A stretch of 64,000 bases of DNA from Escherichia phage Ecwhy_1. The position numbers and the translations under genes are program-made. Below are positions 3,445 through 56,853 of the stretch, piece by piece. Position 1 is the stretch's first letter; every line of letters begins with the position of its first letter. The stretch lies in sequence record MH791411.1; one strand, given 5' to 3'. A model generated the notes under the pieces. That model was not told the DNA's origin, did not search any database, and was given only the letters and a program-made list of their open reading frames with translations.

Positions 3445-3735
3445 TTATACCGGAGATACGGTACTCAGCATTAGTAGAGCAGTGTTTTCATCAATTTCAT
3501 GTTGATTGTCGCACACTAGTGTTTCCAATAGGTCTGGATTGTAATAATAATGTTCATAATCTGTATCATTTGGAATATGGTGATAGGTGAATACAATGTC
3601 AAATACATCATCATCATTTTCACTTTTGAAACGCTTTAATTCTTCTACACTTTCAACAAAACCATACTCTTCAAAAGCAGTAGTACCATCAGTAAGTTTC
3701 ATCCATGCACTTGCGACAATTTTCATAAATTTCAA
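3445..3735 (-). CDS. hypothetical acidic protein
   Basis: Track ORF, 96 aa. Confidence 0.45.
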   Translation of the reverse strand: MKFMKIVASAWMKLTDGTTAFEEYGFVESVEELKRFKSENDDDVFDIVFTYHHIPNDTDYEHYYYNPDLLETLVCDNQHEIDENTALLMLSTVSPV

Positions 3736-3739
3736 ATCC

Positions 3740-4327
3740 TTATTCTTTTGTAATGTTTAGTTTAGAAACGAAATGGTTTTTTGCTTCTTCAAATGTCATT
3801 GAAGTATATACTGGGTTCCAATTATCGTCAAGATCTGTAAGTACTTTAACTTCCATTACATCTTCAGGTGTGTAGAATTGCCATGTGTTATGATCTGGTT
3901 CATAATTAGGGTCTAGTGTGAAAACTGTTCCATTCTGACCATAAACTTGTCCATCCTCTAATAGCTCACGAAATAAGTCTTCCCCAGTTGTTGGGTCTTC
4001 GTATGCATTATAAAAAGGAAAAACAACATTCTCAACATCAGTTCGGGTAGTACCATCGTCTTCATCATATTCAACCAAACGGTCCTGATGAAATACTAGG
4101 TCAATAGCACCAATGCGAGGTTTATTATGTGGAGTTTTGATTTCTTGCTGGGAATTGTAATCCATACGTTCAGTACTGATGAATACACCACTTGGTGTGA
4201 TTTCAATACCAGATACATTTTCTGGTGAATAATAAGAGTCACACATATCATCAATATGCATGTGCTCATGATACACTTCCATTTCAGGGTTCTGCATCAA
4301 CAGTGCTGCTAGGTCTTTTGCTTTCAA
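3740..4327 (-). CDS. hypothetical protein, paralog of 5067..5684
   Basis: N-terminus MKAKDLAALLMQNPEMEVYH...TPSGVFIST matches MKSHDLAKLLLSQPNLDIYH...TPSGIFTT of 5067..5684. Confidence 0.5.
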   Translation of the reverse strand: MKAKDLAALLMQNPEMEVYHEHMHIDDMCDSYYSPENVSGIEITPSGVFISTERMDYNSQQEIKTPHNKPRIGAIDLVFHQDRLVEYDEDDGTTRTDVENVVFPFYNAYEDPTTGEDLFRELLEDGQVYGQNGTVFTLDPNYEPDHNTWQFYTPEDVMEVKVLTDLDDNWNPVYTSMTFEEAKNHFVSKLNITKE

Positions 4328-15967: not shown

Positions 15968-16555
15968 TTACCAGCCTAATGTACCAGTTTGTGTTGGATT
16001 TCCAGTACTGACTGGGAAAGATGAACCTTTTTGTGTTGTACTTGGTCTGTATGTATTGAATCGTGATACGCGTTCAATGTTGATAGCAGTAATACCAGAA
16101 GTTCCAACGGTAATAGTCCCGATGAACATTATAATCTGTGATTCTTGTAATTGTGAAGTTGAGATTCTATAAATTGGCTCTCCCAGTACTAAAGTAGCGT
16201 ATACATATTGTGTTTGTGTGCCTGATGCCACTGTTGGTGCTGTCACTGCAACAACAGGGTAATTATAAAGATAGCCACCGATGAATGCAGGTATCTCTCG
16301 GTTAAAACGTAATGAATAACCGCTTGATGTAATTGACAAACTAGATACATCATAAAGTTCACCATATTGTGATAATGGTAAACCGTTAACAATAGAATCA
16401 ACTTCATCTTTTGTTAAGAGGGGGAATGTACATTCCCCATTTGCGTCTGTTCGATACGATACGTCATTAATATCACTAATAGATAGTCCAGTGTTTTTAT
16501 TCTGGACTACGATTTGTGACATAGCTTCGATATCGGATCTTATAATATATGCCAT
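15968..16555 (-). CDS. short tail-fibre-like protein
   Basis: 195 aa; carries only the shared N-terminal (LPLSQYGELYDV) and C-terminal (RFNTYRPSTTQKGSSFPVSTGNPTQTGT) blocks of the flanking fibre genes. Confidence 0.5.
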   Translation of the reverse strand: MAYIIRSDIEAMSQIVVQNKNTGLSISDINDVSYRTDANGECTFPLLTKDEVDSIVNGLPLSQYGELYDVSSLSITSSGYSLRFNREIPAFIGGYLYNYPVVAVTAPTVASGTQTQYVYATLVLGEPIYRISTSQLQESQIIMFIGTITVGTSGITAINIERVSRFNTYRPSTTQKGSSFPVSTGNPTQTGTLGW

Positions 16556-16567
16556 AAGATTAATCCT

Positions 16568-19264
16568 TTACCAATTGATTGTTCCTGTTTGTGACGGTAG
16601 ACCATAACTAACTGGGAATGAAGAACCAGCAGCTTCAAGAGACGCACCGAAAATATCCAATCTTGAACGTTTTTGTATGTTAACATTTGATATTTGTAGT
16701 GAGTTTGTTTGTATAGTACCTATCCAGAAAATATTATATGCTGTAGAACCAGTTTCTGAAATAACATCAGTTGTTATTACATATTTTGCATTACCTTGTT
16801 CCATTTTAACATATACATGAAATAATGTGTTTGCTGGATTAGCCTTAACTGTAGTTAAGTTTATACTAGTAATCGGTAATGTAAATGCTTTACCAGAAAG
16901 AATTACTGGAGTTTCTTCTGTGAAGTACACAATAAAACCTTGAGCAACGTCTTGTGAAACTACGTTAATCGGTGCACCTTGAGCAGTCCAGTTATTATAA
17001 TCAGCAATTGTAGTACCACATTTTTGGAAAGTCATTTTGTTTACATAGTCTATTGCTTGGAAATAACCAAAACCAATACCAGGTAAAGCTGCTGGTTGAA
17101 TACCTTGCTCATAACTTGCATGTGAACCACTGATAATAAAACTATCAAATTGTGCAGTTGCTTTTGTTACATATGCTCTGAATTGGTGTGTGTTTGTATT
17201 ACCAATAGTTGGGTGAGATAATGGGTCAGAACCACCTATGAAGTAGAAAGAACCACCATCATATATTGTTAAACCAACAGAAGACGAAGCAAAACTACCA
17301 TTACCATTTGGTGTAAAGTTACTTCCGTAAACGTTTTCTAGTACTAAACGCTTGAAGGTAATTGTAGTGATATTACCTGAACGTGTATTCACATTCACTT
17401 CAGCAATTCTAATATAGTTCTGATATGTATTTGTAACTGTACTTAGCATTACGAATGCAGGTATATCAGTTTGTTGTGGAACAAACAATGTCATATCTTT
17501 ATAAGCAGCGGAAGATAAGTTCCAGTCGCTTAGTACTTTGGCGTATTCAGCATTTCTGAAATTATCAAGTACAGATTGAGTAACACTAATGATACCAGTT
17601 CCGTTCATATTTTTATCATATGATAGTGATTGGGAATATCTCTGACCTACCATGAATATCCCACCATTTGTAGTAACATTATTACCACTAATGGAACTAA
17701 TAAAAACTCTGTTGTTCGTGTTATCTGTCACATTAGCACGTTCTGTTGTTGGCTCATAACCTTGTATGGTTCCACGTGATAAAGAATTAAACGTAAAGTT
17801 AGGAGTACTTTTATGAACTGCATAAGATGGACGGAATGCACCAGAACCAGTTGAACGAGAATACTGTTTAGTACTGTTCCCTGGAAGCAATTCTACGCCG
17901 TTAATAAAAGAACCAACTGCTGAACCAAATGAAGGACGAACTATGCCATTTCTGAAATCAGTTGAAATGTTCGCACGTACATTAATCATGCTATATATTG
18001 ATTGTGCAGTAAATTTAGCTTTCTGCATAAGCAATGGTTCTGCTAAGTTTGGACATGCAGTACAGAATACTTCACCTGTATTCAGATAATAATATGAACT
18101 GTAAATGTTTCTTGCACCGCTATGGTCATATAAAGGATCTTTGTTGAGAACGTTACCAGTAGCAACCAATGCCGAACCTGTGTTTGTAACAACAAATGGT
18201 GCAGCAAATGTACCAATATCGTTCCCATTATCCAAGTTACATTGTTTAGTACTCATGTTAAAATTGAAACTATAACTATGCTGTGGTCGGGTATTGTAGT
18301 TTGCCATAGTGAACCATGCGTCACCATTCATTCTGAATCGGAAGTTCTGCGTTCCTGGCTCCTGAGCAACATATAAATCGATAGATGTCATATAAATCCC
18401 CATACCAGCCAAATTTTGTGGTACATAGACATATGGCTTATCAGCAATATTAGTTGAGTTAACATGGTCAGTAATGATTATATTATTCTGAGCAGTATAT
18501 GTAGTATTGTAAAAAGTTTTTGTTGTCCATCCCGTGATTCGGGTAGCAGTATAAGTACCGTTTGCAATATTCAATACAACACGAACAACAACAATCTGTA
18601 GTTTGTTATTTTCATTAAGGACGTTGAATACATAAACTGAACCGTCTTCTGCCATCATAGCATACTCAATCCCACCTTCAGGTGAAATATCAGCTTGGTT
18701 CACAAAAAGACCACTATGTTGTGTATCATCCAATGTACCATTCGTTACTGATATAAACAACCCATTAGTATTGGTAGATGTGTCATTGTAACGACCTAAT
18801 AGTATTTTTGAATCAGTATTGTATAAACCAATAGCAACACGGTTTGCCCCAAAATAGCCAGGCTTATACTGACGGCTTGTATTAACAGTACGGCTCATAT
18901 CGGTAACGGATAATGCGTTCGCTAGGTAAGAATAAAATAAACCTTCAACACTACCGTTTGTACCACTACGTAATAGTACTAATGTGCCATCGTTTTCTAA
19001 AAGTATTTTGTTTCTACGTTGGGATTGGTTTTCTGATGCACCATTAAAATCACCAGATACCCCAGCAGGTAGATAGTTATGTGTACCATAATGCGAGATT
19101 GGAAGTAAACTAATTACATCAAGTAATTCTTCTTTGGAATATGTATCAATTTCCATATTACCATTAGCATCAAATACTTGATCATTGATGCCCTGTACTG
19201 TTCTTTTCCCTTTAACTGTCACATTATGAGTGACGTCTAAGCCACCATATATTTTCTTTGACAT
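16568..19264 (-). CDS. tail fibre / receptor-binding protein
   Basis: 898 aa; fibre-like composition; N-terminal LPISHYGTHNYLP and C-terminal VYFTEETPVILSG...SSFPVSYGLPSQTGT blocks shared with 13222..15951. Confidence 0.55.
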   Translation of the reverse strand: MSKKIYGGLDVTHNVTVKGKRTVQGINDQVFDANGNMEIDTYSKEELLDVISLLPISHYGTHNYLPAGVSGDFNGASENQSQRRNKILLENDGTLVLLRSGTNGSVEGLFYSYLANALSVTDMSRTVNTSRQYKPGYFGANRVAIGLYNTDSKILLGRYNDTSTNTNGLFISVTNGTLDDTQHSGLFVNQADISPEGGIEYAMMAEDGSVYVFNVLNENNKLQIVVVRVVLNIANGTYTATRITGWTTKTFYNTTYTAQNNIIITDHVNSTNIADKPYVYVPQNLAGMGIYMTSIDLYVAQEPGTQNFRFRMNGDAWFTMANYNTRPQHSYSFNFNMSTKQCNLDNGNDIGTFAAPFVVTNTGSALVATGNVLNKDPLYDHSGARNIYSSYYYLNTGEVFCTACPNLAEPLLMQKAKFTAQSIYSMINVRANISTDFRNGIVRPSFGSAVGSFINGVELLPGNSTKQYSRSTGSGAFRPSYAVHKSTPNFTFNSLSRGTIQGYEPTTERANVTDNTNNRVFISSISGNNVTTNGGIFMVGQRYSQSLSYDKNMNGTGIISVTQSVLDNFRNAEYAKVLSDWNLSSAAYKDMTLFVPQQTDIPAFVMLSTVTNTYQNYIRIAEVNVNTRSGNITTITFKRLVLENVYGSNFTPNGNGSFASSSVGLTIYDGGSFYFIGGSDPLSHPTIGNTNTHQFRAYVTKATAQFDSFIISGSHASYEQGIQPAALPGIGFGYFQAIDYVNKMTFQKCGTTIADYNNWTAQGAPINVVSQDVAQGFIVYFTEETPVILSGKAFTLPITSINLTTVKANPANTLFHVYVKMEQGNAKYVITTDVISETGSTAYNIFWIGTIQTNSLQISNVNIQKRSRLDIFGASLEAAGSSFPVSYGLPSQTGTINW

Positions 19265-19311: not shown

Positions 19312-19334
19312 TAAAAAAGCACCCATTGGGTGCT
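19312..19334 (-). terminator. putative intrinsic terminator
   Basis: 7-bp GC-rich stem AGCACCC/GGGTGCT, ATT loop, T6 run on minus strand; directly downstream of nrdG stop. Confidence 0.5.
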
Positions 19335-19339
19335 TGTGT

Positions 19340-19810
19340 TTAAAAGTCTTTATTTTTATATAAAATTCGTTGGTTATTTGAACCACGAAATGGTAATGTT
19401 AAATTCTTTTCTTCTGAAACAAATTTACCATCAACTAATACATCTAAGTACTGAAGAATGTCTTTAGCATGATTATTCATAATCTCTTCTAAAGTATATC
19501 CACTCCAGCACCAAATAGTTTTATTGGGATAAGTCTCTTTTACAATCTTACATAGTTCTAAAATTGTTTCTATGTTCTTTTTCATTAGAGGATCTCCACC
19601 AAGGAGGGATAATCCACTAACGTAAGGCTTACTGAGTTCAGCTAAAATTATATCAATTGTATCAGTACTGAACTCTTGTCCACTTCTATAATCCCATGCT
19701 TCTTCATTGAAGCATCCGTCACACCCATGACTGCACCCACTAACAAAAAGGGAGCATCTTACTCCCTCCCCATTAATAAGGTCGTCTTTAATTATCGTCT
19801 GGTAATTCAT
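19340..19810 (-). CDS. nrdG: anaerobic ribonucleotide reductase activating protein (radical SAM)
   Basis: Cys cluster SGCSHGCDGCFNEEAW, 156 aa, immediately downstream of nrdD. Confidence 0.85.
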   Translation of the reverse strand: MNYQTIIKDDLINGEGVRCSLFVSGCSHGCDGCFNEEAWDYRSGQEFSTDTIDIILAELSKPYVSGLSLLGGDPLMKKNIETILELCKIVKETYPNKTIWCWSGYTLEEIMNNHAKDILQYLDVLVDGKFVSEEKNLTLPFRGSNNQRILYKNKDF

Positions 19811-20114
19811 CTAATATTGCACTCACTATCTCAACGAGAACATCACCATGACATGATTTCGGTTTACAGAAACAGCCAAGACGTTTCCCTGCTAACTCAA
19901 GTAAATCATCAATCTGAACTTCACCGTTAGAAATACGCTCAATAATGTATTCTCTGAACTTTTCGATTGATTCTTCCCTTGTAGCAACAATGAACTCGGC
20001 TTTGGTCTGTTTATCACTGATATGGGTAAATGGGTTGCCCCATTTAGACCCACGACCGATATACACATCATACGGTTCTTTATATTTGTTAACCACAATT
20101 GGCTTTAAATCCAT
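19788..20114 (-). CDS. conserved phage protein with GNPF motif (DUF4326-like)
   Basis: YIGRGSKWGNPF plus C-terminal GCFCKPKSCHGDVL cysteine/histidine cluster; family assignment from memory of the motif, unverified. Confidence 0.5.
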   Translation of the reverse strand: MDLKPIVVNKYKEPYDVYIGRGSKWGNPFTHISDKQTKAEFIVATREESIEKFREYIIERISNGEVQIDDLLELAGKRLGCFCKPKSCHGDVLVEIVSAILDELPDDN

Positions 20115-20122
20115 AATGTACC

Positions 20123-21955
20123 TTATTTGTGTTGTATACGCTCACAACATTCTTGTTGTTTGCCTTTGTTGAATCCACGAGACGATGGGTTCCCCAAATA
20201 TCCAGAAACACGACGAATCACTGAGATTGTCTTCTCATTGCGATTATCACATACTGGACAATGAAAACCGTGTTTATCTACACTGAACTCACCTTTATAC
20301 CCACACTCGTAACACTGGTCAATTGGCTGGTTGATGCCAAAATATGGAATCTTTGTGTAAGCGTAATTGACTAAAGTCTCAAGTGCTTGAATATTGTTAC
20401 TTAGGTTGGGTGATTCCACATAACTGATGTTTCCTCCATTACTGAGGTAAGCAAAGCCCTCTTCGTAGCTCCACTTATCAAATGCAGAACTTTCTACCCA
20501 TACTGGTTGATGGAAGGAATTTGTGATGTAATCACGTTTTAGTACTGAAGGGTATTTAGATTCGATGCAACGTGCAAATTTGTAGCAAAGTGACTCTGCT
20601 GGGGTTCCATATAGACTAAAAGCTATATTACTCTCTTTTTTGAACTCATCGCATTTTACTTTCATATAATTCAGTACTGACATACAGAACTCCTTACTGA
20701 TAGAACCAGTCAGAATTTCTGAACATTCAACTAAACCAACGTAACCAATACTAATACTAGCATATCCGTTATAAAATAGCTTGTCAATCGTTTCTTCTGC
20801 CCCTAAACGTGAAAGTGCACCTTCCATGAACAAAATCGGATTCTGCTTCGCTTTTGTGCCTTTTAAACGCTCTACGCGGTTCATCTGAGCACGATATGCA
20901 ATATTCATATGCTCGTCTATTTTATCAAAAAACTCTCCATCTGAGGCACTTTCAAGAGCAATTAGAGGTAAATTGATAGAAACCACGCCTAAGTTGAAAC
21001 GACCGTTATATTGCTCATTTCCATTGGAATCTTCCCATTTTCCTAAAAATGAACGACAACCCATAGGAGTTACTGCTGTACTGCTACTTCCTGTAACTTT
21101 GTGATTTAACGGCACAGAAACGAAGTCTGGGTAGATTCTCTTCGATGCACAACGCATTGCCAACTGTTTCATGTCATAGTTGCAATCATCGCTATTCATG
21201 TTGATTCCGTCCTGTAAAAAGAAAATTACTTTAGGAAACACAGGAGTGATCTTATCTTTACCTAAACCATTCTCATGTACTTTTAAGTACTGTTCAGTGA
21301 TTAATTTACCAAATTTTGAAGTATTCAGTCCTAAACTAAGAGAAATGAATGCTGCTTGACCATTTGTACTAATCATTGAATTTGTCTGGTAAAGTAAGGT
21401 TTGACACCCATCATAGACTTCTTTTCGTAATTCTTCCTCAATGTATTCAGTACTGAGATTATATGCCTTTTGCTTCGCTAATAGCTTATCCCACGACTTT
21501 TGGACGTAAGGTTCAAGACCAACGTCGATATGAGCCAACGATTGACCACCGTACTGGGAACTAGCAACAGCTTGTACAATTTGTGTCAGTACTGTACATG
21601 CTACACTAAAACTCTTTGGTTCTTCAATTTTGGCACAACCAATGGTAAATCCATTTTTTAGCATATCTGGGTAGTTAACTAAGCAACAGTTAGTTAATGG
21701 GCTGATATAGTAGTCTAAATCATGAATATGACCATAACCATCATTATGCCACTGCATTAGCTCCTTTGGAATAACATCTTGTGAATAATGCTTAGATAGG
21801 ATACCAGCAAGTAAATCCCTGTGTGTATTGACGCATTTCGCATCTTTGTTTGCATTTTCATTTGTAAGATCAGTATTGCTCTGATTTAGGAAATTTGTTA
21901 CGTCAGTATATAATTTATCTAATTGCATTTTACTTTCCTTGTATTTTGAAATCAT
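20123..21955 (-). CDS. nrdD: anaerobic ribonucleoside-triphosphate reductase
   Basis: 610 aa; C-terminal zinc ribbon CYECG...CPVCDNR followed by glycyl-radical motif RVSGYLG. Confidence 0.9.
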   Translation of the reverse strand: MISKYKESKMQLDKLYTDVTNFLNQSNTDLTNENANKDAKCVNTHRDLLAGILSKHYSQDVIPKELMQWHNDGYGHIHDLDYYISPLTNCCLVNYPDMLKNGFTIGCAKIEEPKSFSVACTVLTQIVQAVASSQYGGQSLAHIDVGLEPYVQKSWDKLLAKQKAYNLSTEYIEEELRKEVYDGCQTLLYQTNSMISTNGQAAFISLSLGLNTSKFGKLITEQYLKVHENGLGKDKITPVFPKVIFFLQDGINMNSDDCNYDMKQLAMRCASKRIYPDFVSVPLNHKVTGSSSTAVTPMGCRSFLGKWEDSNGNEQYNGRFNLGVVSINLPLIALESASDGEFFDKIDEHMNIAYRAQMNRVERLKGTKAKQNPILFMEGALSRLGAEETIDKLFYNGYASISIGYVGLVECSEILTGSISKEFCMSVLNYMKVKCDEFKKESNIAFSLYGTPAESLCYKFARCIESKYPSVLKRDYITNSFHQPVWVESSAFDKWSYEEGFAYLSNGGNISYVESPNLSNNIQALETLVNYAYTKIPYFGINQPIDQCYECGYKGEFSVDKHGFHCPVCDNRNEKTISVIRRVSGYLGNPSSRGFNKGKQQECCERIQHK

Positions 21956-22064: not shown

Positions 22065-22087
22065 AGAAAAAGCACCACTAGGGTGCT
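22065..22087 (-). terminator. putative intrinsic terminator
   Basis: Stem AGCACC/GGTGCT with 5-nt loop and T5 run on minus strand; same AGCACC stem as the terminator at 19312. Confidence 0.45.
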
Positions 22088-22190
22088 TTAAAGTACTGCT
22101 AATATAAAAACTGCCCAAATTAGCAGTACTACATTGGTTGGAGCGGCAAAAAACATATATGCAGCAATTGCACTGCATCCGATTACAAGT

Positions 22191-25146: not shown

Positions 25147-25391
25147 TGTGCATCCTTTGGAATAGTGTTAAGGCGTGTACGGTTTACAATCTTCCTGCAC
25201 ATGAGATTAAGATCTTGCCCATGACGCATCTCATGGCAAGCATACAATGTACCATCATAGTTAAGTTTAGTCAAATTCTGGCGAATGAACTCTGCATCAG
25301 CCTCCTGAACTTTAGGTGCACAGCCACAGAGAGTAATGGACACAAATATTGTTAATGTAATGAATATATTTTTCATGATATTTTTTCTCAT
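25143..25391 (-). CDS. putative lipoprotein
   Basis: Signal peptide ending ITLCGC (lipobox-like), 82 aa. Confidence 0.45.
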   Translation of the reverse strand: MRKNIMKNIFITLTIFVSITLCGCAPKVQEADAEFIRQNLTKLNYDGTLYACHEMRHGQDLNLMCRKIVNRTRLNTIPKDAQ

Positions 25392-26359
25392 TTTGGGCTA
25401 TAACCACTTTTAATTTTAGAAATTACTTTCTTCTCGAAGAACTTACGTGCTTCTTCAATAGTTTTGAATTCTTCACCATCTGTAGTACTGGTTTTACCAA
25501 TAGCACCATACTCAATAATTACTTCACACACTGGAGCATTCAATTCAATATTATAGAATTTGTTCGAAGAACCGTGAACATATTCCAAATGTACATTATC
25601 AGGAATGTTCTGCACATAATCATAGTTCTTGAAGATAATATCAATCATATTTTCTTCACCGCGATCAGGAAATAGTTCAGTATTATTCAGTACTAAACGC
25701 TGTGCAGCACGGAACATATCAAAATATTGTTCACCTTTTTTCAGTTCTTTTGTATCAGAACAGAAATGACCATAGTATTCTACATAATCATTCCAAGGAT
25801 AAATTCCTTCATCAGCAGTTTCAAAAGCGTAAGTTTCATCTTGTGGAACTTTAAAACCACGAGTTTTTGGATGAGAAATTAAGCACAGTGAAATATTATG
25901 ACCGATATCTGAATCATCAGTAATACTACCACCAACCATATGAACAACATTTTTAATACGTTCAAAATCTACATCTTCAATTTCATGATACATTAAATGT
26001 TCTTCAATATTACTTACTAGTAATGAATTACCATTTCCTGCATCGAATTCAAAAATGAAAAGTTCTACACAATCTTCTTCTTTCATTTCAATAGTATCAC
26101 TGAGTTTAATATACTCATTTTTTACTTGTTCAATATTTTCATGAGAACCAAAACTATAACGAGAACTGATATAACTACTACCATCCAACCATCCCATATC
26201 CCAAGGTTCTTCTGACATGTATTCGGTGCTATAGAAATCAGTCAAATCATCTCTCTGAGTACAAACCGTAAGAGAACGAACATTATTAAGACCTTGAACT
26301 TCAAGATTCAGTACTGTAGTGTTGCCGATTTTTTGTTCAGAAATAATTTTAGTTTTCAT
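25388..26359 (-). CDS. WGR-domain protein
   Basis: C-terminal ~60 aa KFYNIELNAPVCEVIIEYGAIGKT...KIKSGY fits the WGR fold pattern (W-G-R replaced by Y-G-A); N-terminal 260 aa unassigned. Confidence 0.45.
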   Translation of the reverse strand: MKTKIISEQKIGNTTVLNLEVQGLNNVRSLTVCTQRDDLTDFYSTEYMSEEPWDMGWLDGSSYISSRYSFGSHENIEQVKNEYIKLSDTIEMKEEDCVELFIFEFDAGNGNSLLVSNIEEHLMYHEIEDVDFERIKNVVHMVGGSITDDSDIGHNISLCLISHPKTRGFKVPQDETYAFETADEGIYPWNDYVEYYGHFCSDTKELKKGEQYFDMFRAAQRLVLNNTELFPDRGEENMIDIIFKNYDYVQNIPDNVHLEYVHGSSNKFYNIELNAPVCEVIIEYGAIGKTSTTDGEEFKTIEEARKFFEKKVISKIKSGYSPK

Positions 26360-30662: not shown

Positions 30663-31214
30663 CTATAGATAGCTGATTAGTAAGTTTTCTTTTTGTACAA
30701 GATACTCTAATTCTTGTTTCGCAGTTCCGATGAAGTTCTGTGTCATAAGATTATTATATCCTGCTTCTCGATTTTGTCCCTTCGAATAACGAGAGATGTG
30801 ACATAAATTTACACCAGCCACCTCTGCACTAGCATGTTTGCCATATGCATAATTATCACGAAGTTTTTTAAGTTCAGCATAAGTCATTTCATAACTATAG
30901 CTATGTGAGTGACCCTCTGGAAACAATTCAAGTGATTTTAATGGAGACAGGCGACTTTTGTCAATGATATAGTTCATTTCTTCTTGTACTTCACGTTGTA
31001 ACGCATCTTCTAATGACTTATCAGTACTTTCAACTGTTCCACCACATGCACCCAACAATCCATCCCAACGCACTTGTAGGAGTACTAAGTTAACCACTGG
31101 AATATCATTTAGTTCATAACCAGAGTATGGGGTACATTCTTTTGCATAAAAGAAACAGAATACAAAATTTGCACGTTTCCCCAGTTGTCCCAGTGGTACT
31201 TCAGCTTTACTCAT
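30663..31214 (-). CDS. Nudix hydrolase
   Basis: GGTVESTDKSLEDALQREVQEEMNYI approximates the Nudix box (MutT GGKIEMGETPEQAVVRELQEEVGI) with one inserted residue. Confidence 0.6.
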   Translation of the reverse strand: MSKAEVPLGQLGKRANFVFCFFYAKECTPYSGYELNDIPVVNLVLLQVRWDGLLGACGGTVESTDKSLEDALQREVQEEMNYIIDKSRLSPLKSLELFPEGHSHSYSYEMTYAELKKLRDNYAYGKHASAEVAGVNLCHISRYSKGQNREAGYNNLMTQNFIGTAKQELEYLVQKENLLISYL

Positions 31215-31963
31215 CGCATTCGTTCCTTAATTATAGTTTCAACCTGTGGAATTGCTTTCGTCGCAGGTTTGATGACCTTCTCATTAAAAAGAAAATCATT
31301 ATCATTTTTTCGGATGTTAACATTTACACTATAGCATGGAAGTGCACCAGCTAGTCTGGACCATACCAGTACTGTATCACTACTTCCAATAACTACAACT
31401 GTATCATTTTCTGTGAGACTTTTCAACACTTCATTTCGTTCTTCATAAATGGGGAGACGTACCCCATCAACGTAGCGATGATACTCACCAATCATCACTA
31501 CATTTGGTTTTGCAAAAACATCAGCTTTAGGGATATATGGTTCATAACCACAATTAATGACATTGTAATCATCAGTATTAATAGAAAAGTTCTCAATTAC
31601 TTCACATAAATTGCCGTGTAGTTTGAGTTCGGTTCCACCAATTCTAGTATATAGATCATCCATATTAGAAGTCATGTGTAAAAAACAATCACCATACAAA
31701 TCTTCTAATGATTTAATAAAGTAATGCATTTCATTAGGATGACATTCACCTAATTTTACACGCAATGTATTATAAAATGAATGAACTATATGATACTTAG
31801 AACTAAGTCGTGCAATGTTACAAACATCATTAATTTTGAAATTGTCCCACAACCCATCATCAAAGCGGAATGGTTCCATCCCGCTCTCAACTGAAAGACC
31901 TGCCCCTGAAATTATAAGTAATCTTTTGTTCCCAGCATTTTGTATAAATTTATCTGATATCAC
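31211..31963 (-). CDS. Sir2-family NAD-dependent deacylase / ADP-ribosyltransferase-like protein
   Basis: ISGAGLSVESGMEPFR (GAGIS.ESGIP.FR motif), TSNMDDL, LHGNL catalytic-His motif, PNVVMIGE, VVVIGSSDTV; Zn-binding Cys tetrad degenerate (two Cys only). Confidence 0.65.
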   Translation of the reverse strand: MISDKFIQNAGNKRLLIISGAGLSVESGMEPFRFDDGLWDNFKINDVCNIARLSSKYHIVHSFYNTLRVKLGECHPNEMHYFIKSLEDLYGDCFLHMTSNMDDLYTRIGGTELKLHGNLCEVIENFSINTDDYNVINCGYEPYIPKADVFAKPNVVMIGEYHRYVDGVRLPIYEERNEVLKSLTENDTVVVIGSSDTVLVWSRLAGALPCYSVNVNIRKNDNDFLFNEKVIKPATKAIPQVETIIKERMR

Positions 31964-55798: not shown

Positions 55799-56332
55799 TT
55801 ATTTCCTCATGTATTTTATTACATCTTCAAATAGTTTAGTTTTCAGTGCATCATCATTACCAGGTAGAAAAGTACTGAAGCTATTAAAATCTTCATTCTT
55901 GGCAAACTCACGCATCTGTGTGGAACTGTAGCGACTTATATTTCGGTCAATTCCAGCTTGAACTGCCTTGATTGAACAAAAATTATATAACTTCCCATTG
56001 TACGTGTCAAGTGTTTTTTGGAATGGTTCAAGTCTATCTGAACCACATATGAAAAGAACATCTAAGTACTTTCCATCCAGTTCTCTCATTATATCAAACA
56101 GATTATCTTCTGTATAGATATTTTCTTGTACAGATGGGTAAAATCCTTCTGTATAGTACATTTTCAGTTCAGGAGGTAATGGGTTTTTGATGGCATCAGT
56201 ACTGGTACTAAGGAATATTTTCAAATCAGCATTGTACTGTTCTTGTAGTGCTTGAGCTTTTTCAAACACTAAACCATGACCTCGATGTACAGGGTTAATT
56301 CTTCCGAATGTCACTACGCATGTTTCTTTCAT
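55799..56332 (-). CDS. nicotinamide/nicotinate mononucleotide adenylyltransferase-like nucleotidyltransferase
   Basis: FGRINPVHRGH (cytidylyltransferase-type H-x-G-H motif) and ISRYSSTQMRE (S-x-T-x-x-R region); 177 aa. Confidence 0.6.
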   Translation of the reverse strand: MKETCVVTFGRINPVHRGHGLVFEKAQALQEQYNADLKIFLSTSTDAIKNPLPPELKMYYTEGFYPSVQENIYTEDNLFDIMRELDGKYLDVLFICGSDRLEPFQKTLDTYNGKLYNFCSIKAVQAGIDRNISRYSSTQMREFAKNEDFNSFSTFLPGNDDALKTKLFEDVIKYMRK

Positions 56333-56853
56333 ATGTTCTTCATCACCTGACCAATAGATTTAAGATGGTTGATTTTAGCTGGAGTCAAATACTTATCCAG
56401 TACTATTAAACAACTAGGGAATGGAGCACTGTCAGTCTTTTTATCTGGTTCTTCAGGGATACCGAACTTTAAGCGACCTTTTATAAAACAAATACAATCA
56501 CAAACTTTCGCAGCATAATCCTGAAAGGCTATAGTATCAGTTCTTGATGGTACGAGAATCAGTACTGTAGCACCTTTGTTATATGCATCAACTGCCTTAG
56601 ATAACCACGTTTTCAAATCACTGTACGGTGGGTTGAGCCACACGATATTGTTTCCCCAGTCCTGTTCAAGTGAATTGTCTTCTGGTGTAAAGAAATTATC
56701 ACACAATGCTGTTTCTTTAACACATGCTGCATCTAGTGTAAATCCCCAGAGTTCATCCAAATCTTCAAAGAAATCCTTTGGAGTAGTCCAGTTATCTTTC
56801 CCAGTACTGAAATGTACTGATTGTTTTTTCTTCGAAGCATCCTTCTTCGACAT
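56329..56853 (-). CDS. dam: phage Dam-family DNA N6-adenine methyltransferase
   Basis: WTTPKDFFEDLDELWGFTLDAAC ... DWGNNIVWLNPPYS ... LVPSRTDT ... IKGRLKFG, catalytic NPPY motif. Confidence 0.8.
   Translation of the reverse strand: MSKKDASKKKQSVHFSTGKDNWTTPKDFFEDLDELWGFTLDAACVKETALCDNFFTPEDNSLEQDWGNNIVWLNPPYSDLKTWLSKAVDAYNKGATVLILVPSRTDTIAFQDYAAKVCDCICFIKGRLKFGIPEEPDKKTDSAPFPSCLIVLDKYLTPAKINHLKSIGQVMKNI

Follow-up and report, generated by a model that had tools for sequence, protein, structure and literature searches.

What is a 108-aa protein gene doing between the genes for the anaerobic ribonucleotide reductase (RNR) and its activase, and does this position mean that the protein serves the reductase? 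The question is raised by one locus in the 64-kb stretch of phage DNA that was analysed as a whole (referred to below as the window). A preliminary description had placed the protein in a DUF4326-like family without an established function and proposed for it a role connected to nucleotide metabolism or to the radical-SAM activase. The gene itself is not new: the GenBank record of fEgEco12 annotates it as DUF4326, the record of RaK2 labels its orthologue 'nrdA.1', and at least three papers contain computational analyses of the family. The literature that we found on nrdA.1, PF14216, PDC-M45, mSLOG and DuOB holds computational predictions only and no functional data, which agrees with what had been said about the family.

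Gene and operon layout

The locus comprises the following features.

22069..22089, minus strand: terminator-like hairpin with T-run upstream of nrdD, a second copy of the 19317..19335 hairpin (sequence)
20123..21955, minus strand: nrdD, anaerobic (class III) ribonucleoside-triphosphate reductase (Pfam NRDD, 557 bits; Gly_radical, 80 bits)
20115..20124, minus strand: nrdD–DUF4326 junction with a Shine–Dalgarno-like AAGG that overlaps the TAA stop codon of nrdD, ATG 6 nt downstream (read from the sequence)
19788..20114, minus strand: DUF4326/T4 NrdA.1-family gene (fEgEco12 g240), 108 aa, ATG start (ORF; Pfam PF14216; PHROG 464)
19788..19810, minus strand: 23 nt shared out of frame by the 3' end of the DUF4326 gene and the beginning of nrdG (coordinates and sequence)
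19340..19810, minus strand: nrdG, radical-SAM activase of NrdD (Pfam Fer4_12, 180 bits; Radical_SAM, 36 bits)
19317..19335, minus strand: terminator-like hairpin with T-run directly after the nrdG stop codon (sequence)

According to the coordinates on the minus strand, the end of nrdD is followed after a gap of 8 nt by the start of the DUF4326 gene, and the start codon of nrdG lies 20 nt ahead of the stop codon of this gene, in a different reading frame. The ORF and its limits had been described exactly, and the overlap with nrdG agrees with the approximate length given before. The AAGG at the nrdD stop codon is a putative ribosome-binding site of the DUF4326 gene. The hairpin AAGCACC-N5-GGTGCTT is present in only two copies in the window; these flank the nrdD–DUF4326–nrdG unit, and both are conserved in PBECO4 and at locus L001. 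With the upstream copy, the transcription unit that comes before nrdD appears to end. No terminator-like site was found within the unit, and the region contained no Rfam families, tRNAs or notable repeats besides the two bracketing hairpins. The earlier suggestion that the gene is expressed together with nrdD and nrdG gains plausibility from the tight packing of the genes, the AAGG at the nrdD stop codon, the lack of an internal terminator and the matching hairpins on both sides, and the three genes may well be co-transcribed. A DUF4326–NrdG fusion generated by frameshifting was dropped as a candidate, since no slippery sequence was seen on inspection of the 23-nt overlap.

Family membership and conservation

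The 108-aa protein matched the Pfam family DUF4326 (PF14216) with E = 2.9e-24 over residues 8–95 (86 bits against a cutoff of 25) and PHROG 464 with E = 1.4e-42, and the proposed family membership was thereby confirmed by profile search. No Pfam family other than DUF4326 was detected in the protein, and no NCBIfam or PADLOC model matched it. Homologues of this small, strongly conserved protein were found in 2168 of the 50,697 phage records, or about 4% of the phages sequenced; one of these is T4, whose homologue, an ORF that goes by the name nrdA.1 in related phages, is 42–46% identical to the 108-aa protein.

The position between nrdD and nrdG is kept in at least 34 records of related jumbo phages. 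PBECO4 exhibits an equivalent nrdD–DUF4326–nrdG layout with an overlap of 29 nt, and the layout in RaK2 is also equivalent, with an extra gene (vs.6) located between nrdD and the DUF4326 gene. Comparison with the PBECO4 orthologue gave a dN/dS of 0.081 (at dS 0.44), and the value for nrdG was 0.079. The DUF4326 gene is under purifying selection; it is a real, well conserved gene, and its conservation is far above chance expectation.

With its inserted hairpin of some 10 residues (TH..D..TKAEF.V, in the segment 29–43), the protein belongs to a 'long' subfamily. The alignment showed that this insert is missing from the versions of T4, KVP40, rV5-like phages, Ackermannviridae, N4-like phages and PaMx11. 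No paralogue of the gene was found elsewhere in the window by tblastn. The product of g163 ('ribonucleotide reductase A') was considered as a second DUF4326 copy and rejected: it had no Pfam match, the hhalign probability was 0.9% and its PHROG is a cytidyltransferase family. Similarly, the members of the 'DUF4326' cluster with 407–415 aa in loci L044 and L068 proved to be fragments of T7-like RNA polymerase, which entered the cluster owing to single-linkage clustering through an ORF of L059.

Gene neighbourhoods across phages

In T4 and Acj9, there is an overlap between the DUF4326 homologue and the start of nrdA; the homologue of EC-F1 comes immediately after nrdB. T4 NrdA.1 resembles the 108-aa protein in its motifs, its size of about 100 aa and the overlap of its reading frame with that of an RNR gene, whereas its neighbours nrdA and nrdB encode the aerobic class Ia enzyme and not the anaerobic class III enzyme encoded by nrdD and nrdG. 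The gene thus adjoins two RNR classes in two phage groups, which is a lead worth following, and since the T4 protein lacks the insert of the 'long' subfamily, the two juxtapositions are probably independent. According to a rough post hoc estimate, about 0.25 chance adjacencies would be expected among approximately a dozen lineages, compared with the two observed. One of the more speculative readings is that the DUF4326 protein would help phage deoxynucleotide synthesis irrespective of the reductase class.

Direct adjacency to an RNR gene was seen in the T4-like phages and the Asteriusvirus/RaK2 group only and was absent in about 12 other lineages. Within 3.5–6 kb of the gene, most families have no RNR; none was found near it in Ackermannviridae, N4-like, PaMx11-like, Otagovirus, T5-like, Casjensviridae and Felix-O1-like phages or in a 35-kb Actinomyces phage. 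Among the 80 closest metagenomic viral loci, 78 had no RNR within 4 kb, and nrdD/nrdG were present near the gene in the remaining two, both of the RaK2/Asteriusvirus type. The placement between nrdD and nrdG is therefore specific to this phage group and is not typical of the family: co-occurrence with nrdDG holds within the group and breaks down outside it. Together with the class Ia partner in T4-like phages, this speaks against a role tied specifically to the radical-SAM activase or to the class III reductase. RaK2 tolerates vs.6 between nrdD and the gene, Aeromonas phage PX29 keeps the gene in its position on the td side with no nrdA annotated there, and the gene precedes nrdA in T4 and follows nrdB in EC-F1, an arrangement that resembles a cassette boundary more than a fixed operon partner.

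Across the lineages, the gene is accompanied by genes for RNR, thymidylate synthase, dCMP deaminase, a 5'-deoxynucleotidase-like HD protein, PNKP, RNA ligases, exonucleases and DNA polymerase; at some loci it abuts the dCMP deaminase gene or sits near that of thymidylate synthase. Where RNR is missing, the neighbouring genes serve replication, repair or nucleotide metabolism or encode SLOG, which directly adjoins the gene at L010/L012 and L044. A protein of Vibrio phage Vp_R1 named DUF2493, which we take to be SLOG-type, carries the DUF4326 fold. The earlier functional proposal is only partly supported: its broader part, a role in nucleotide metabolism, is favoured by the nrdA/nrdB, dCMP deaminase and thymidylate synthase neighbours, although a link to RNR itself is not seen in most families.

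Conserved motifs and predicted structure

Two motifs stand out in the protein.

20028..20063, minus strand: N-terminal motif Y18-I-G-R21-G-S-K-W-G-N27-P-F29, predicted ligand-binding residues (conservation)
19842..19874, minus strand: C-terminal motif C81-F-C83-K-P85-K-S-C88-H89-G90-D91, predicted active-site or metal-binding loop (conservation and model)

The N-terminal motif, YIGRGSKWGNPF (residues 18–29), contains the GNPF sequence, and both this and the C-terminal cysteine cluster are present as noted in the preliminary description. In an alignment of 15 distant phage lineages with about 40% identity, the residues kept without exception include I19, R21, N27, C81, C83, P85, C88, H89 and G90, and V17, Y18, G20 and G26 are nearly invariant. 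The pattern L-x-C-x-C-x-P-x2-C-H-G at residues 79–90 is invariant in alignment A1 and in the divergent set A2. The conservation of the N-terminal motif suggests a role in ligand binding.

The AF2 model of the protein (pLDDT 92.6) consists, in the region of the cysteines, of a strand (78–81), a loop (82–88) and a helix (89–103), so that the Cys loop lies at a strand–helix junction, as judged at the level of secondary structure only. Foldseek comparison with BFVD yielded 36 matches at E ≤ 1e-3, most of which bear the name DUF4326; the best of them had E = 5.7e-14, TM 0.85 and rmsd 0.9. In the PDB, the best Foldseek match had E = 2.4, with no rhodanese, PTP or RapZ among the 30 entries listed, a search in which the sensitivity of Foldseek may be limiting for a domain of 108 aa; single-protein and profile searches of the PDB sequences provided no meaningful match either. 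There is no solved structure for the DUF4326 family, and the confident model is without a PDB match.

Possible relationship to DUF488 and rhodanese-like phosphatases

The phosphate-binding loop of rhodaneses and protein-tyrosine phosphatases (PTPs) is located between a strand and a helix. Burroughs and Aravind reportedly proposed in 2023 a RapZ-C–DUF488–DUF4326 clade within this rhodanese/PTP superfamily. The 108-aa protein is similar in that its modelled Cys loop would lie between a β-strand and the N-terminus of an α-helix and in that the spacing C83-X5-H89 equals that of C-X5-R in the enzymes of the superfamily. The signature itself is not matched, as the sequence C83-K-P-K-S-C-H89-G has His-Gly in place of the arginine; the protein also has two further invariant cysteines, and the domain is much smaller than a typical rhodanese or PTP. 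In published predictions from the Aravind laboratory, DUF4326 was assigned to the rhodanese-phosphatase superfamily and proposed to process terminal phosphates on ribose (PMC9503650, PMC7824862). This assignment gains no independent confirmation from the fold search, since nothing in the PDB scored below E = 2.4.

The likeness to DUF488 (PF04343; PF22751) comprises a strand, two cysteines, P-x2-C-H and a helix. The DUF488 sequence G-C-LL-C-SE-xx-P-H-x-C-H-R-R corresponds to G-C-F-C-K-P-xx-C-H-G-D here, with His-Arg in the former and His-Gly in the latter, whereas the N-terminal half is unlike DUF488 and its GRGSxWGNP is specific to DUF4326. Neither PF04343 nor PF22751 matched the 108-aa protein even at E ≤ 10. 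Sub-threshold matches to PF22751 ('Active DUF488-N3 subclade') were obtained for 26 of 43 homologues at the Cys loop and helix, with a best E of 2.9e-4; those inspected scored 12–17 bits against a cutoff of 27. The hhalign comparison of shallow DUF4326 and DUF488 profiles, the latter built from the partners in the bacterial cassette described below, aligned 19 columns over P-x2-C-H and the helix and was not significant (E = 0.02–0.03, probability about 2%).

Proposed function

We tentatively favour the view, with a probability of roughly 45%, that the DUF4326 protein is a cysteine-loop enzyme whose targets are phosphates linked to the ribose of nucleotides or of nucleic-acid ends, and that it belongs to an early nucleotide-supply module. 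It would be a small stand-alone auxiliary protein carried in the DNA-replication and nucleotide-metabolism blocks of phages. R21 and N27, together with the strand–loop–helix element C81-x-C83-x-P-x2-C88-H89-G90, would form a predicted pocket for a phosphate attached to (deoxy)ribose, and this phosphate would be removed or transferred by cysteine-based chemistry like that of the rhodanese/PTP-fold phosphatases, with nucleotides, ADP-ribose-type derivatives or nucleic-acid ends as candidate substrates. The gene would be transcribed, and probably also translationally linked, with nrdD and nrdG as a three-gene unit, its adjacency to nrd genes being explained by membership of the nucleotide-supply module and not by a special tie to the radical-SAM activase. 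A catalytic function is suggested by the invariance of polar and Cys/His residues across lineages that are only about 40% identical and by the rhodanese/PTP topology of the Cys loop in the AF2 model; the weak DUF488 matches, the Aravind-laboratory assignment and the ribose-phosphate and nucleic-acid gene contexts point to phosphate processing as the type of reaction.

The same cysteine cluster could equally be a structural site, as Cys3-His within 9 residues (C81, C83, C88 and H89, all invariant) would suit zinc or an iron-sulfur centre. The protein would then be a small, non-catalytic metal-binding protein interacting with nucleic acid or with another protein. The missing arginine of the canonical C-X5-R, the lack of a match between the model and any solved enzyme fold and the C-x2-C...C-H of the DUF488 cassette partner, which resembles a zinc knuckle, are in favour of this. 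A purely structural metal site leaves the (near) invariance of R21, N27 and G-R-G-S-x-W-G-N-P unexplained, however, and with C88 and H89 adjacent at the start of a helix, the geometry would be awkward for a single metal ion. [quoted passage not shown] We consider a purely metal-binding function unlikely.

Bacterial cassette and conflict systems

A scan of cellular genomes for DUF4326 with alignment A1 revealed an mSLOG–DUF4326 fusion within a DuOB–DUF488 cassette in 25 bacterial genomes (Gammaproteobacteria, with Vibrio proteolyticus and Cellvibrio among the carriers). Its DUF4326 domain is 39–45% identical to the 108-aa protein over residues 18–102 and retains all motif residues. This tight association of DUF4326 with mSLOG, DUF488 and a dual-OB protein provides a second lead to function. 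In the cassette, a minimal SLOG forms one protein with the domain, and the dual-OB protein and DUF488 are its partners; the phage version is a stand-alone domain whose gene has nrdD and nrdG as neighbours and no DuOB or DUF488 partner nearby.

The cassette is located in variable flanks, and two of its genes match the PADLOC candidate system PDC-M45 (M45A, E = 2e-42; M45C, E = 5e-68). Predictions place DUF4326 in NAD/ADP-ribose conflict networks (PMC9503650, PMC7824862), homologues in giant viruses of the anti-Avs protein ORF83 bear a C-terminal DUF4326, and genes for Sir2-like, Nudt16-like NUDIX and WGR-domain proteins are found elsewhere in the window. All this is consistent with a counter-defence function, in which the phage domain would reverse the reaction of the host DuOB–DUF488–mSLOG–DUF4326 system or prevent it in advance, or would degrade an immune signal derived from nucleotides or ADP-ribose, the position at nrd being incidental. 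On the other hand, PDC-M45 is a candidate system for which no experimental literature was found, and the 108-aa protein itself matches no PADLOC model. The phage gene, with its low dN/dS, resides in conserved replication and nucleotide-metabolism blocks, family-wide for instance in T4-like phages, unlike typical anti-defence genes with their fast turnover. We regard counter-defence as quite unlikely; as a biological role, it is compatible with the enzymatic mechanism proposed above. In its most specific form, which is very improbable, phage DUF4326 would be the viral counterpart of the cassette domain, reversing or pre-empting a ribose-phosphate modification that the candidate defence system would place on nucleotides or on DNA or RNA ends, and a conserved T4 gene would then be an 'eraser' in an uncharacterised conflict chemistry.

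The question of a dedicated accessory factor of phage RNRs, acting, for example, as thiol-redox partner or metal chaperone or by conditioning substrates or effectors enzymatically, can be answered with strong doubt: the overlapping frames at two reductase classes and the three invariant cysteines speak for it, but RNR is mostly absent from the neighbourhood, Pfam and NCBIfam revealed no homology to NrdG, NrdH, NrdI, NrdR or thioredoxin folds, and the known fusions are to SLOG-type, Macro and NADAR domains (PMC9503650), never to RNR domains. The proteins of 92–189 aa labelled 'ribonucleotide reductase NrdA-like' are DUF4326 homologues; these labels trace to the gene name nrdA.1, which was propagated and carries no functional meaning.

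Gene layout, family assignment and conservation

The DUF4326 gene between nrdD and nrdG is a real gene with a correct family assignment, and both were already known and annotated. A jumbo phage of PBECO4/Asteriusvirus type, Escherichia phage fEgEco12 (PP777464.1, 375 kb), matches the window at 100% identity, and its record labels the gene (g240) 'DUF4326 domain-containing protein'. The position, size, placement and overlap of about 23 nt claimed in the preliminary description agree exactly with the coordinates and sequence:

22089-22069 (-), terminator-like hairpin with T-run, upstream of nrdD
20123..21955 (-), nrdD, 610 aa, upstream of the ORF (Pfam NRDD 557 bits, Gly_radical 80 bits)
19788..20114 (-), DUF4326 ORF, 108 aa, ATG start
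19340..19810 (-), nrdG, 156 aa, downstream of the ORF (Fer4_12 180 bits, Radical_SAM)
19335-19317 (-), terminator-like hairpin with T-run, immediately 3' of nrdG

The DUF4326 ATG lies 8 nt from the nrdD stop codon, which is overlapped by a Shine-Dalgarno-like AAGG. The 23-nt overlap with nrdG is in different frames, the nrdG ATG being 20 nt ahead of the ORF TAA. The protein (MDLKPIVVNKYKEPYDVYIGRGSKWGNPFTHISDKQTKAEFIVATREESIEKFREYIIERISNGEVQIDDLLELAGKRLGCFCKPKSCHGDVLVEIVSAILDELPDDN) matched PF14216 (E = 2.9e-24, 86 bits against a cutoff of 25), which confirms the proposed membership, and PHROG 464 ('unknown function', E = 1.4e-42); no NCBIfam model was found for it.

Between the two bracketing hairpins the minus strand has no further hairpin followed by a T-run (the other terminator-like call, 21540-21523 within nrdD, has the tail TTGGTCTTGA), and no Rfam family or tRNA was found in the region, which makes co-transcription of nrdD, the DUF4326 gene and nrdG plausible. 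The bracketing hairpins are ~80% alike. Allowing up to 2 mismatches, AAGCACC-N5-GGTGCTT occurs at only two sites in the 64-kb window, 19317-19335 and 22070-22088, both at the unit borders (0.06 expected by chance). Both copies are retained in PBECO4 and in an IMG/VR relative (L001), and the upstream copy only in RaK2. They may represent ordinary terminators of a single type or mark the borders of a module.

Conservation in related phages was borne out: the nrdD-ORF-nrdG order was found in at least 34 related records (Escherichia, Salmonella and Yersinia phages) and in PBECO4, where the overlap is 29 nt. Klebsiella phage RaK2 has the same arrangement plus a vs.6-like gene separating nrdD from the ORF, and the GenBank note on its orthologue already reads 'nrdA.1; similar to ... 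NrdA.1'. This insertion, a homologue of T4 vs.6 (L094:2610-2972, on the nrdD side of the nrdA.1-like gene), indicates that the nrdD-nrdG space tolerates insertions in the RaK2/Asteriusvirus-type group. The dN/dS ratio against PBECO4 was 0.081 for the DUF4326 gene (dS = 0.44), 0.079 for nrdG and 0.027 for nrdD; the DUF4326 gene is therefore functional and under strong purifying selection.

Homologues were detected by tblastn in 2168 of 50,697 phage records. In T4 the homologue (phrog 464) sits between td and nrdA, with a 10-nt overlap into the nrdA start; the Acinetobacter phage Acj9 gene at the same position as T4's is annotated nrdA.1, and the KVP40 copy is described as 'related to T4 nrdA.1', which identifies the family as that of NrdA.1. 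About 4% of sequenced phages, T4 included, carry a member of this family. Labels such as 'ribonucleotide reductase NrdA-like' are attached to phrog_24867 and to proteins of tuntematon, PaMx11, PGN829.1 and vEam_S_24, all of them DUF4326 homologues of 92-189 aa. We conclude that these labels spread from the gene name nrdA.1, without homology to NrdA. The record of Enterobacter phage EC-F1 seems to place the gene start wrongly: the tblastn match covers 3501-3746 of L181:3501-3776, and the annotated ORF 3597-3776 ('hypothetical protein') is the C-terminal part only.

Conserved residues, predicted structure and proposed function

Residues D16, Y18, G20, R21, S23, N27, L74, K77, C81, C83, P85, C88, H89, G90 and D91 are invariant in 43 close homologues. 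Fifteen distant members (~40-60% identity; from T4, KVP40, rV5-like, Ackermannviridae, N4-like, PaMx11 and Otagovirus phages and environmental contigs) share the invariant core I19, R21, N27, L74, G76, L79, C81, C83, P85, C88, H89 and G90. The insert TH..D..TKAEF.V within residues 29-43 marks a 'long' subfamily, to which the window protein belongs; T4-type proteins lack it. The AlphaFold2 model is confident (pLDDT 92.6, pTM 0.85) and contains a strand (6-9), short strands, helices 46-62 and 68-72, a strand (78-81), the C83-C88 loop and a helix (89-103). Foldseek against viral models retrieved mainly DUF4326 proteins (top E = 5.7e-14, TM 0.85), and a DUF488 protein weakly (E = 0.19). The fold also occurs in longer proteins of multi-domain size: a 494-aa Marseillevirus protein, 'NADAR domain with protein tyrosine phosphatase', and a Vibrio phage Vp_R1 protein of 212 aa named DUF2493, which we take to be a SLOG-type family. 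Against the PDB, Foldseek gave no match below E = 2.4 and sequence searches were empty; at the sensitivity of these searches, this is a fold without a solved structure.

The Aravind laboratory assigns DUF4326 to the rhodanese-phosphatase superfamily, with a predicted role in processing terminal phosphates on ribose (PMC9503650); in earlier work it predicted an enzymatic domain that would link NAD-utilising signalling to DNA modification and restriction-modification systems (PMC7824862). In our searches, PF22751 ('Active DUF488-N3 subclade') gave sub-threshold matches, falling on the C-terminal Cys loop and helix, in 26 of the 43 homologues (best E = 2.9e-4) and none with the window protein itself. 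Alignment of DUF4326 with DUF488 by hhalign superimposed exactly P-x2-C-H and the helix, only at E = 0.02-0.03; the motif is G-C-LL-C-SE-xx-P-H-x-C-H-R-R in DUF488 proteins of the bacterial cassettes, whereas it is G-C-F-C-K-P-xx-C-H-G-D in the window protein. A 2023 paper dedicated to the rhodanese-phosphatase superfamily reportedly names a 'RapZ-C-DUF488-DUF4326 clade' in its abstract. This superfamily has a C-X5-R phosphate-binding loop. The strand-loop-helix placement and C83-X5-H89 spacing of the window protein match that loop, but its arginine is replaced by His-Gly, and the fold search with the window model gave no rhodanese-phosphatase structure among the 30 PDB matches listed. Superfamily membership is thus a proposal of the literature without confirmation by our own sequence and fold comparisons.

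This mixed evidence makes Cys-loop phosphatase or phosphotransferase action the leading hypothesis. The protein would be a small enzyme with a cysteine loop, acting on nucleotide-derived molecules or nucleic-acid ends to remove or transfer phosphate carried by ribose or deoxyribose; in this phage it would be expressed together with the anaerobic reductase pair, within a nucleotide-supply module. We give this reading, in which catalysis, substrate and co-transcription are all inferred, a probability of roughly 0.45. The invariant C81, C83, C88 and H89 would equally suit a non-catalytic Cys3-His metal-binding protein; we regard that as unlikely, though the most probable of the alternatives.

Genomic partners in viruses and cells

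Repeated neighbours in viral loci fall into a few syntenic lineages and comprise a clamp loader (9 loci), a GIY-YIG endonuclease (8), a cyclic-phosphate-processing receiver domain (7), an Rnl1-type RNA ligase and PNKP on the divergent strand (7 and 4), a second RNA ligase type and a metallophosphatase (5 and 6), an HD 5'-deoxynucleotidase-like protein (5) and a DNA methyltransferase (5). A YAcAr-type SLOG gene lies immediately beside DUF4326 in two arrangements, upstream (L010/L012) and downstream (L044). In some viral contigs (L059:3989-5482; P0097; L044, L068) DUF4326 directly abuts, or is apparently fused to, the N-terminal portion of a single-subunit RNA polymerase of T7 type (PF00940); the fusion may be real or may stem from a frameshift or ORF-calling artefact.

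A tight cassette was found in 25 cellular loci, mostly of Gammaproteobacteria and with variable chromosomal flanks (within L140-L172, e.g. L150:3570-5237, L141:3363-5237 and L160). It consists of DuOB (PF22557, E = 1.5e-46), DUF488 (PF04343, E = 8e-25) and a fusion protein of ~201 aa joining a minimal SLOG domain (PF22565, E = 6e-39) to DUF4326; gene order is permuted in two loci. In PADLOC, DuOB corresponds to PDC-M45A (E = 2e-42) and the cassette DUF488 protein to PDC-M45C (E = 5e-68), PDC-M45 being a candidate defence system. DUF4326 proteins, including the fusion, match none of the PADLOC models, and a literature search found no experimental paper on PDC-M45. With such a cassette in bacteria, the phage protein might serve in counter-defence; this is a rather improbable alternative, which bears on the biological role and would fit the chemistry proposed for the cysteine-loop enzyme.

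A mobile-element-like neighbourhood was found in 11 Pyrinomonadaceae loci. In ten of them DUF7831 (PF25176) immediately precedes DUF4326, several have a YAcAr-type SLOG gene, and DUF4326 is followed by a 547-aa protein without Pfam hit, SSB and RNase H. Pyrinomonadaceae/Acidobacteria MAGs (L096-L112, L135) carry several copies of the unit per genome, and a Fic-domain gene lies near DUF4326 in five loci. The recurrent partners all handle nucleotides, ribose phosphates or nucleic-acid ends, a set more in keeping with the published prediction than with a role specific to the reductase.

Relation to ribonucleotide reductase

In the 80 IMG/VR loci closest to the query (4 kb either side; a sample biased to the 'long' subfamily), tblastn placed NrdD/NrdG near DUF4326 only in L001 (Asteriusvirus-like) and L002 (RaK2). 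T4 NrdA/NrdB and rV5-type reductase were found in none of the 80, thymidylate synthase in two, and dCMP deaminase directly 3' of DUF4326 in three, which give identical BLAST hits.

Table. Neighbourhoods of the DUF4326 gene (X) in phage isolates and groups
Direct ribonucleotide reductase (RNR) adjacency:
T4: td, hypothetical, X, nrdA
Acj9: td, hypothetical, X, nrdA
Pseudotevenvirus EC-F1: nrdA, nrdB, X, homing endonuclease, RNA ligase
Asteriusvirus/RaK2 group: nrdD/nrdG
No direct RNR adjacency:
Aeromonas phage PX29: td, hypothetical, X, denA, rnlA; nrdA unannotated at this place
KVP40: no RNR adjacency; only dCMP deaminase, 3 kb off
rV5-like tuntematon: RNR genes 3.3-5 kb downstream of X, not directly adjacent
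Rhizobium phage TM40: exonuclease, X, dCMP deaminase (overlapping), 5'-deoxynucleotidase near; no RNR adjacency
No direct RNR adjacency, and no nucleotide-metabolism gene annotated near X (nine isolates or groups):
Ackermannviridae: X after two exonuclease subunits
N4-like PGN829.1: X between RNA-polymerase subunit genes
PaMx11: X after exonuclease
Otagovirus
Erwinia jumbo phage
T5-like phage Cody
Casjensviridae N133: DNA polymerase, X, endonuclease, helicase
Actinomyces phage xhp1 (35 kb): X adjoins C5 methyltransferase genes; RusA and SSB further downstream
Felix-O1-like vEam_S_24: X near rIIB and polynucleotide kinase

The DUF4326 gene is a common accessory in phage DNA-replication/nucleotide-metabolism blocks. 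Direct RNR adjacency occurs in 2 of ~14 family-level lineages, between which RNR classes and DUF4326 subfamilies differ; against ~0.25 expected, roughly and as estimated post hoc, this is above chance but no rule. In T4-like phages X precedes nrdA in some genera, follows nrdB in others and is kept without them in PX29, which resembles an nrdAB cassette boundary as much as a functional operon. Co-occurrence with nrdDG holds for the Asteriusvirus/RaK2 group but not for 78 of the 80 IMG/VR loci and most isolate lineages. The suggested role in nucleotide metabolism, a reasonable lead, gains partial comparative support from RNR, dCMP deaminase and thymidylate synthase neighbours, although many lineages have none. 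A link to the radical-SAM activase in particular finds little support, the adjacent genes in T4-like phages being nrdA/nrdB, and a dedicated reductase accessory factor is, despite the above-chance adjacency, the least probable alternative.

Other genes of the window

The g163 product (55799-56332, -; 177 aa), annotated 'ribonucleotide reductase A', was rejected as a DUF4326 relative (hhalign probability 0.9%). Its label looks like a misannotation, because the protein has only 177 aa, no Pfam hit and matches PHROG 'cytidyltransferase' families (E = 9e-54). Its neighbour upstream, g162 (56329-56853), carries the label 'type I R-M methyltransferase subunit' and encodes an N6-adenine methyltransferase of the Dam family (PF05869). 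At a distance of 5-12 kb from the DUF4326 gene are genes with an NAD/ADP-ribose flavour: a Sir2-family gene (PF02146) overlapping a Nudt16-like NUDIX hydrolase gene (PF22327) by 4 nt (g219 and g218, 30663-31963, -), and g228 (25388-26359, 323 aa) with a C-terminal WGR domain (PF05406). Directly downstream of nrdG, the ORFs 15968-16555 (195 aa) and 16568-19264 (898 aa), both on the minus strand and annotated 'hypothetical', share a similar C-terminal motif, ...SSFPVS.G.P.QTGT..W, and look like tail-fibre/adhesin-type paralogues.
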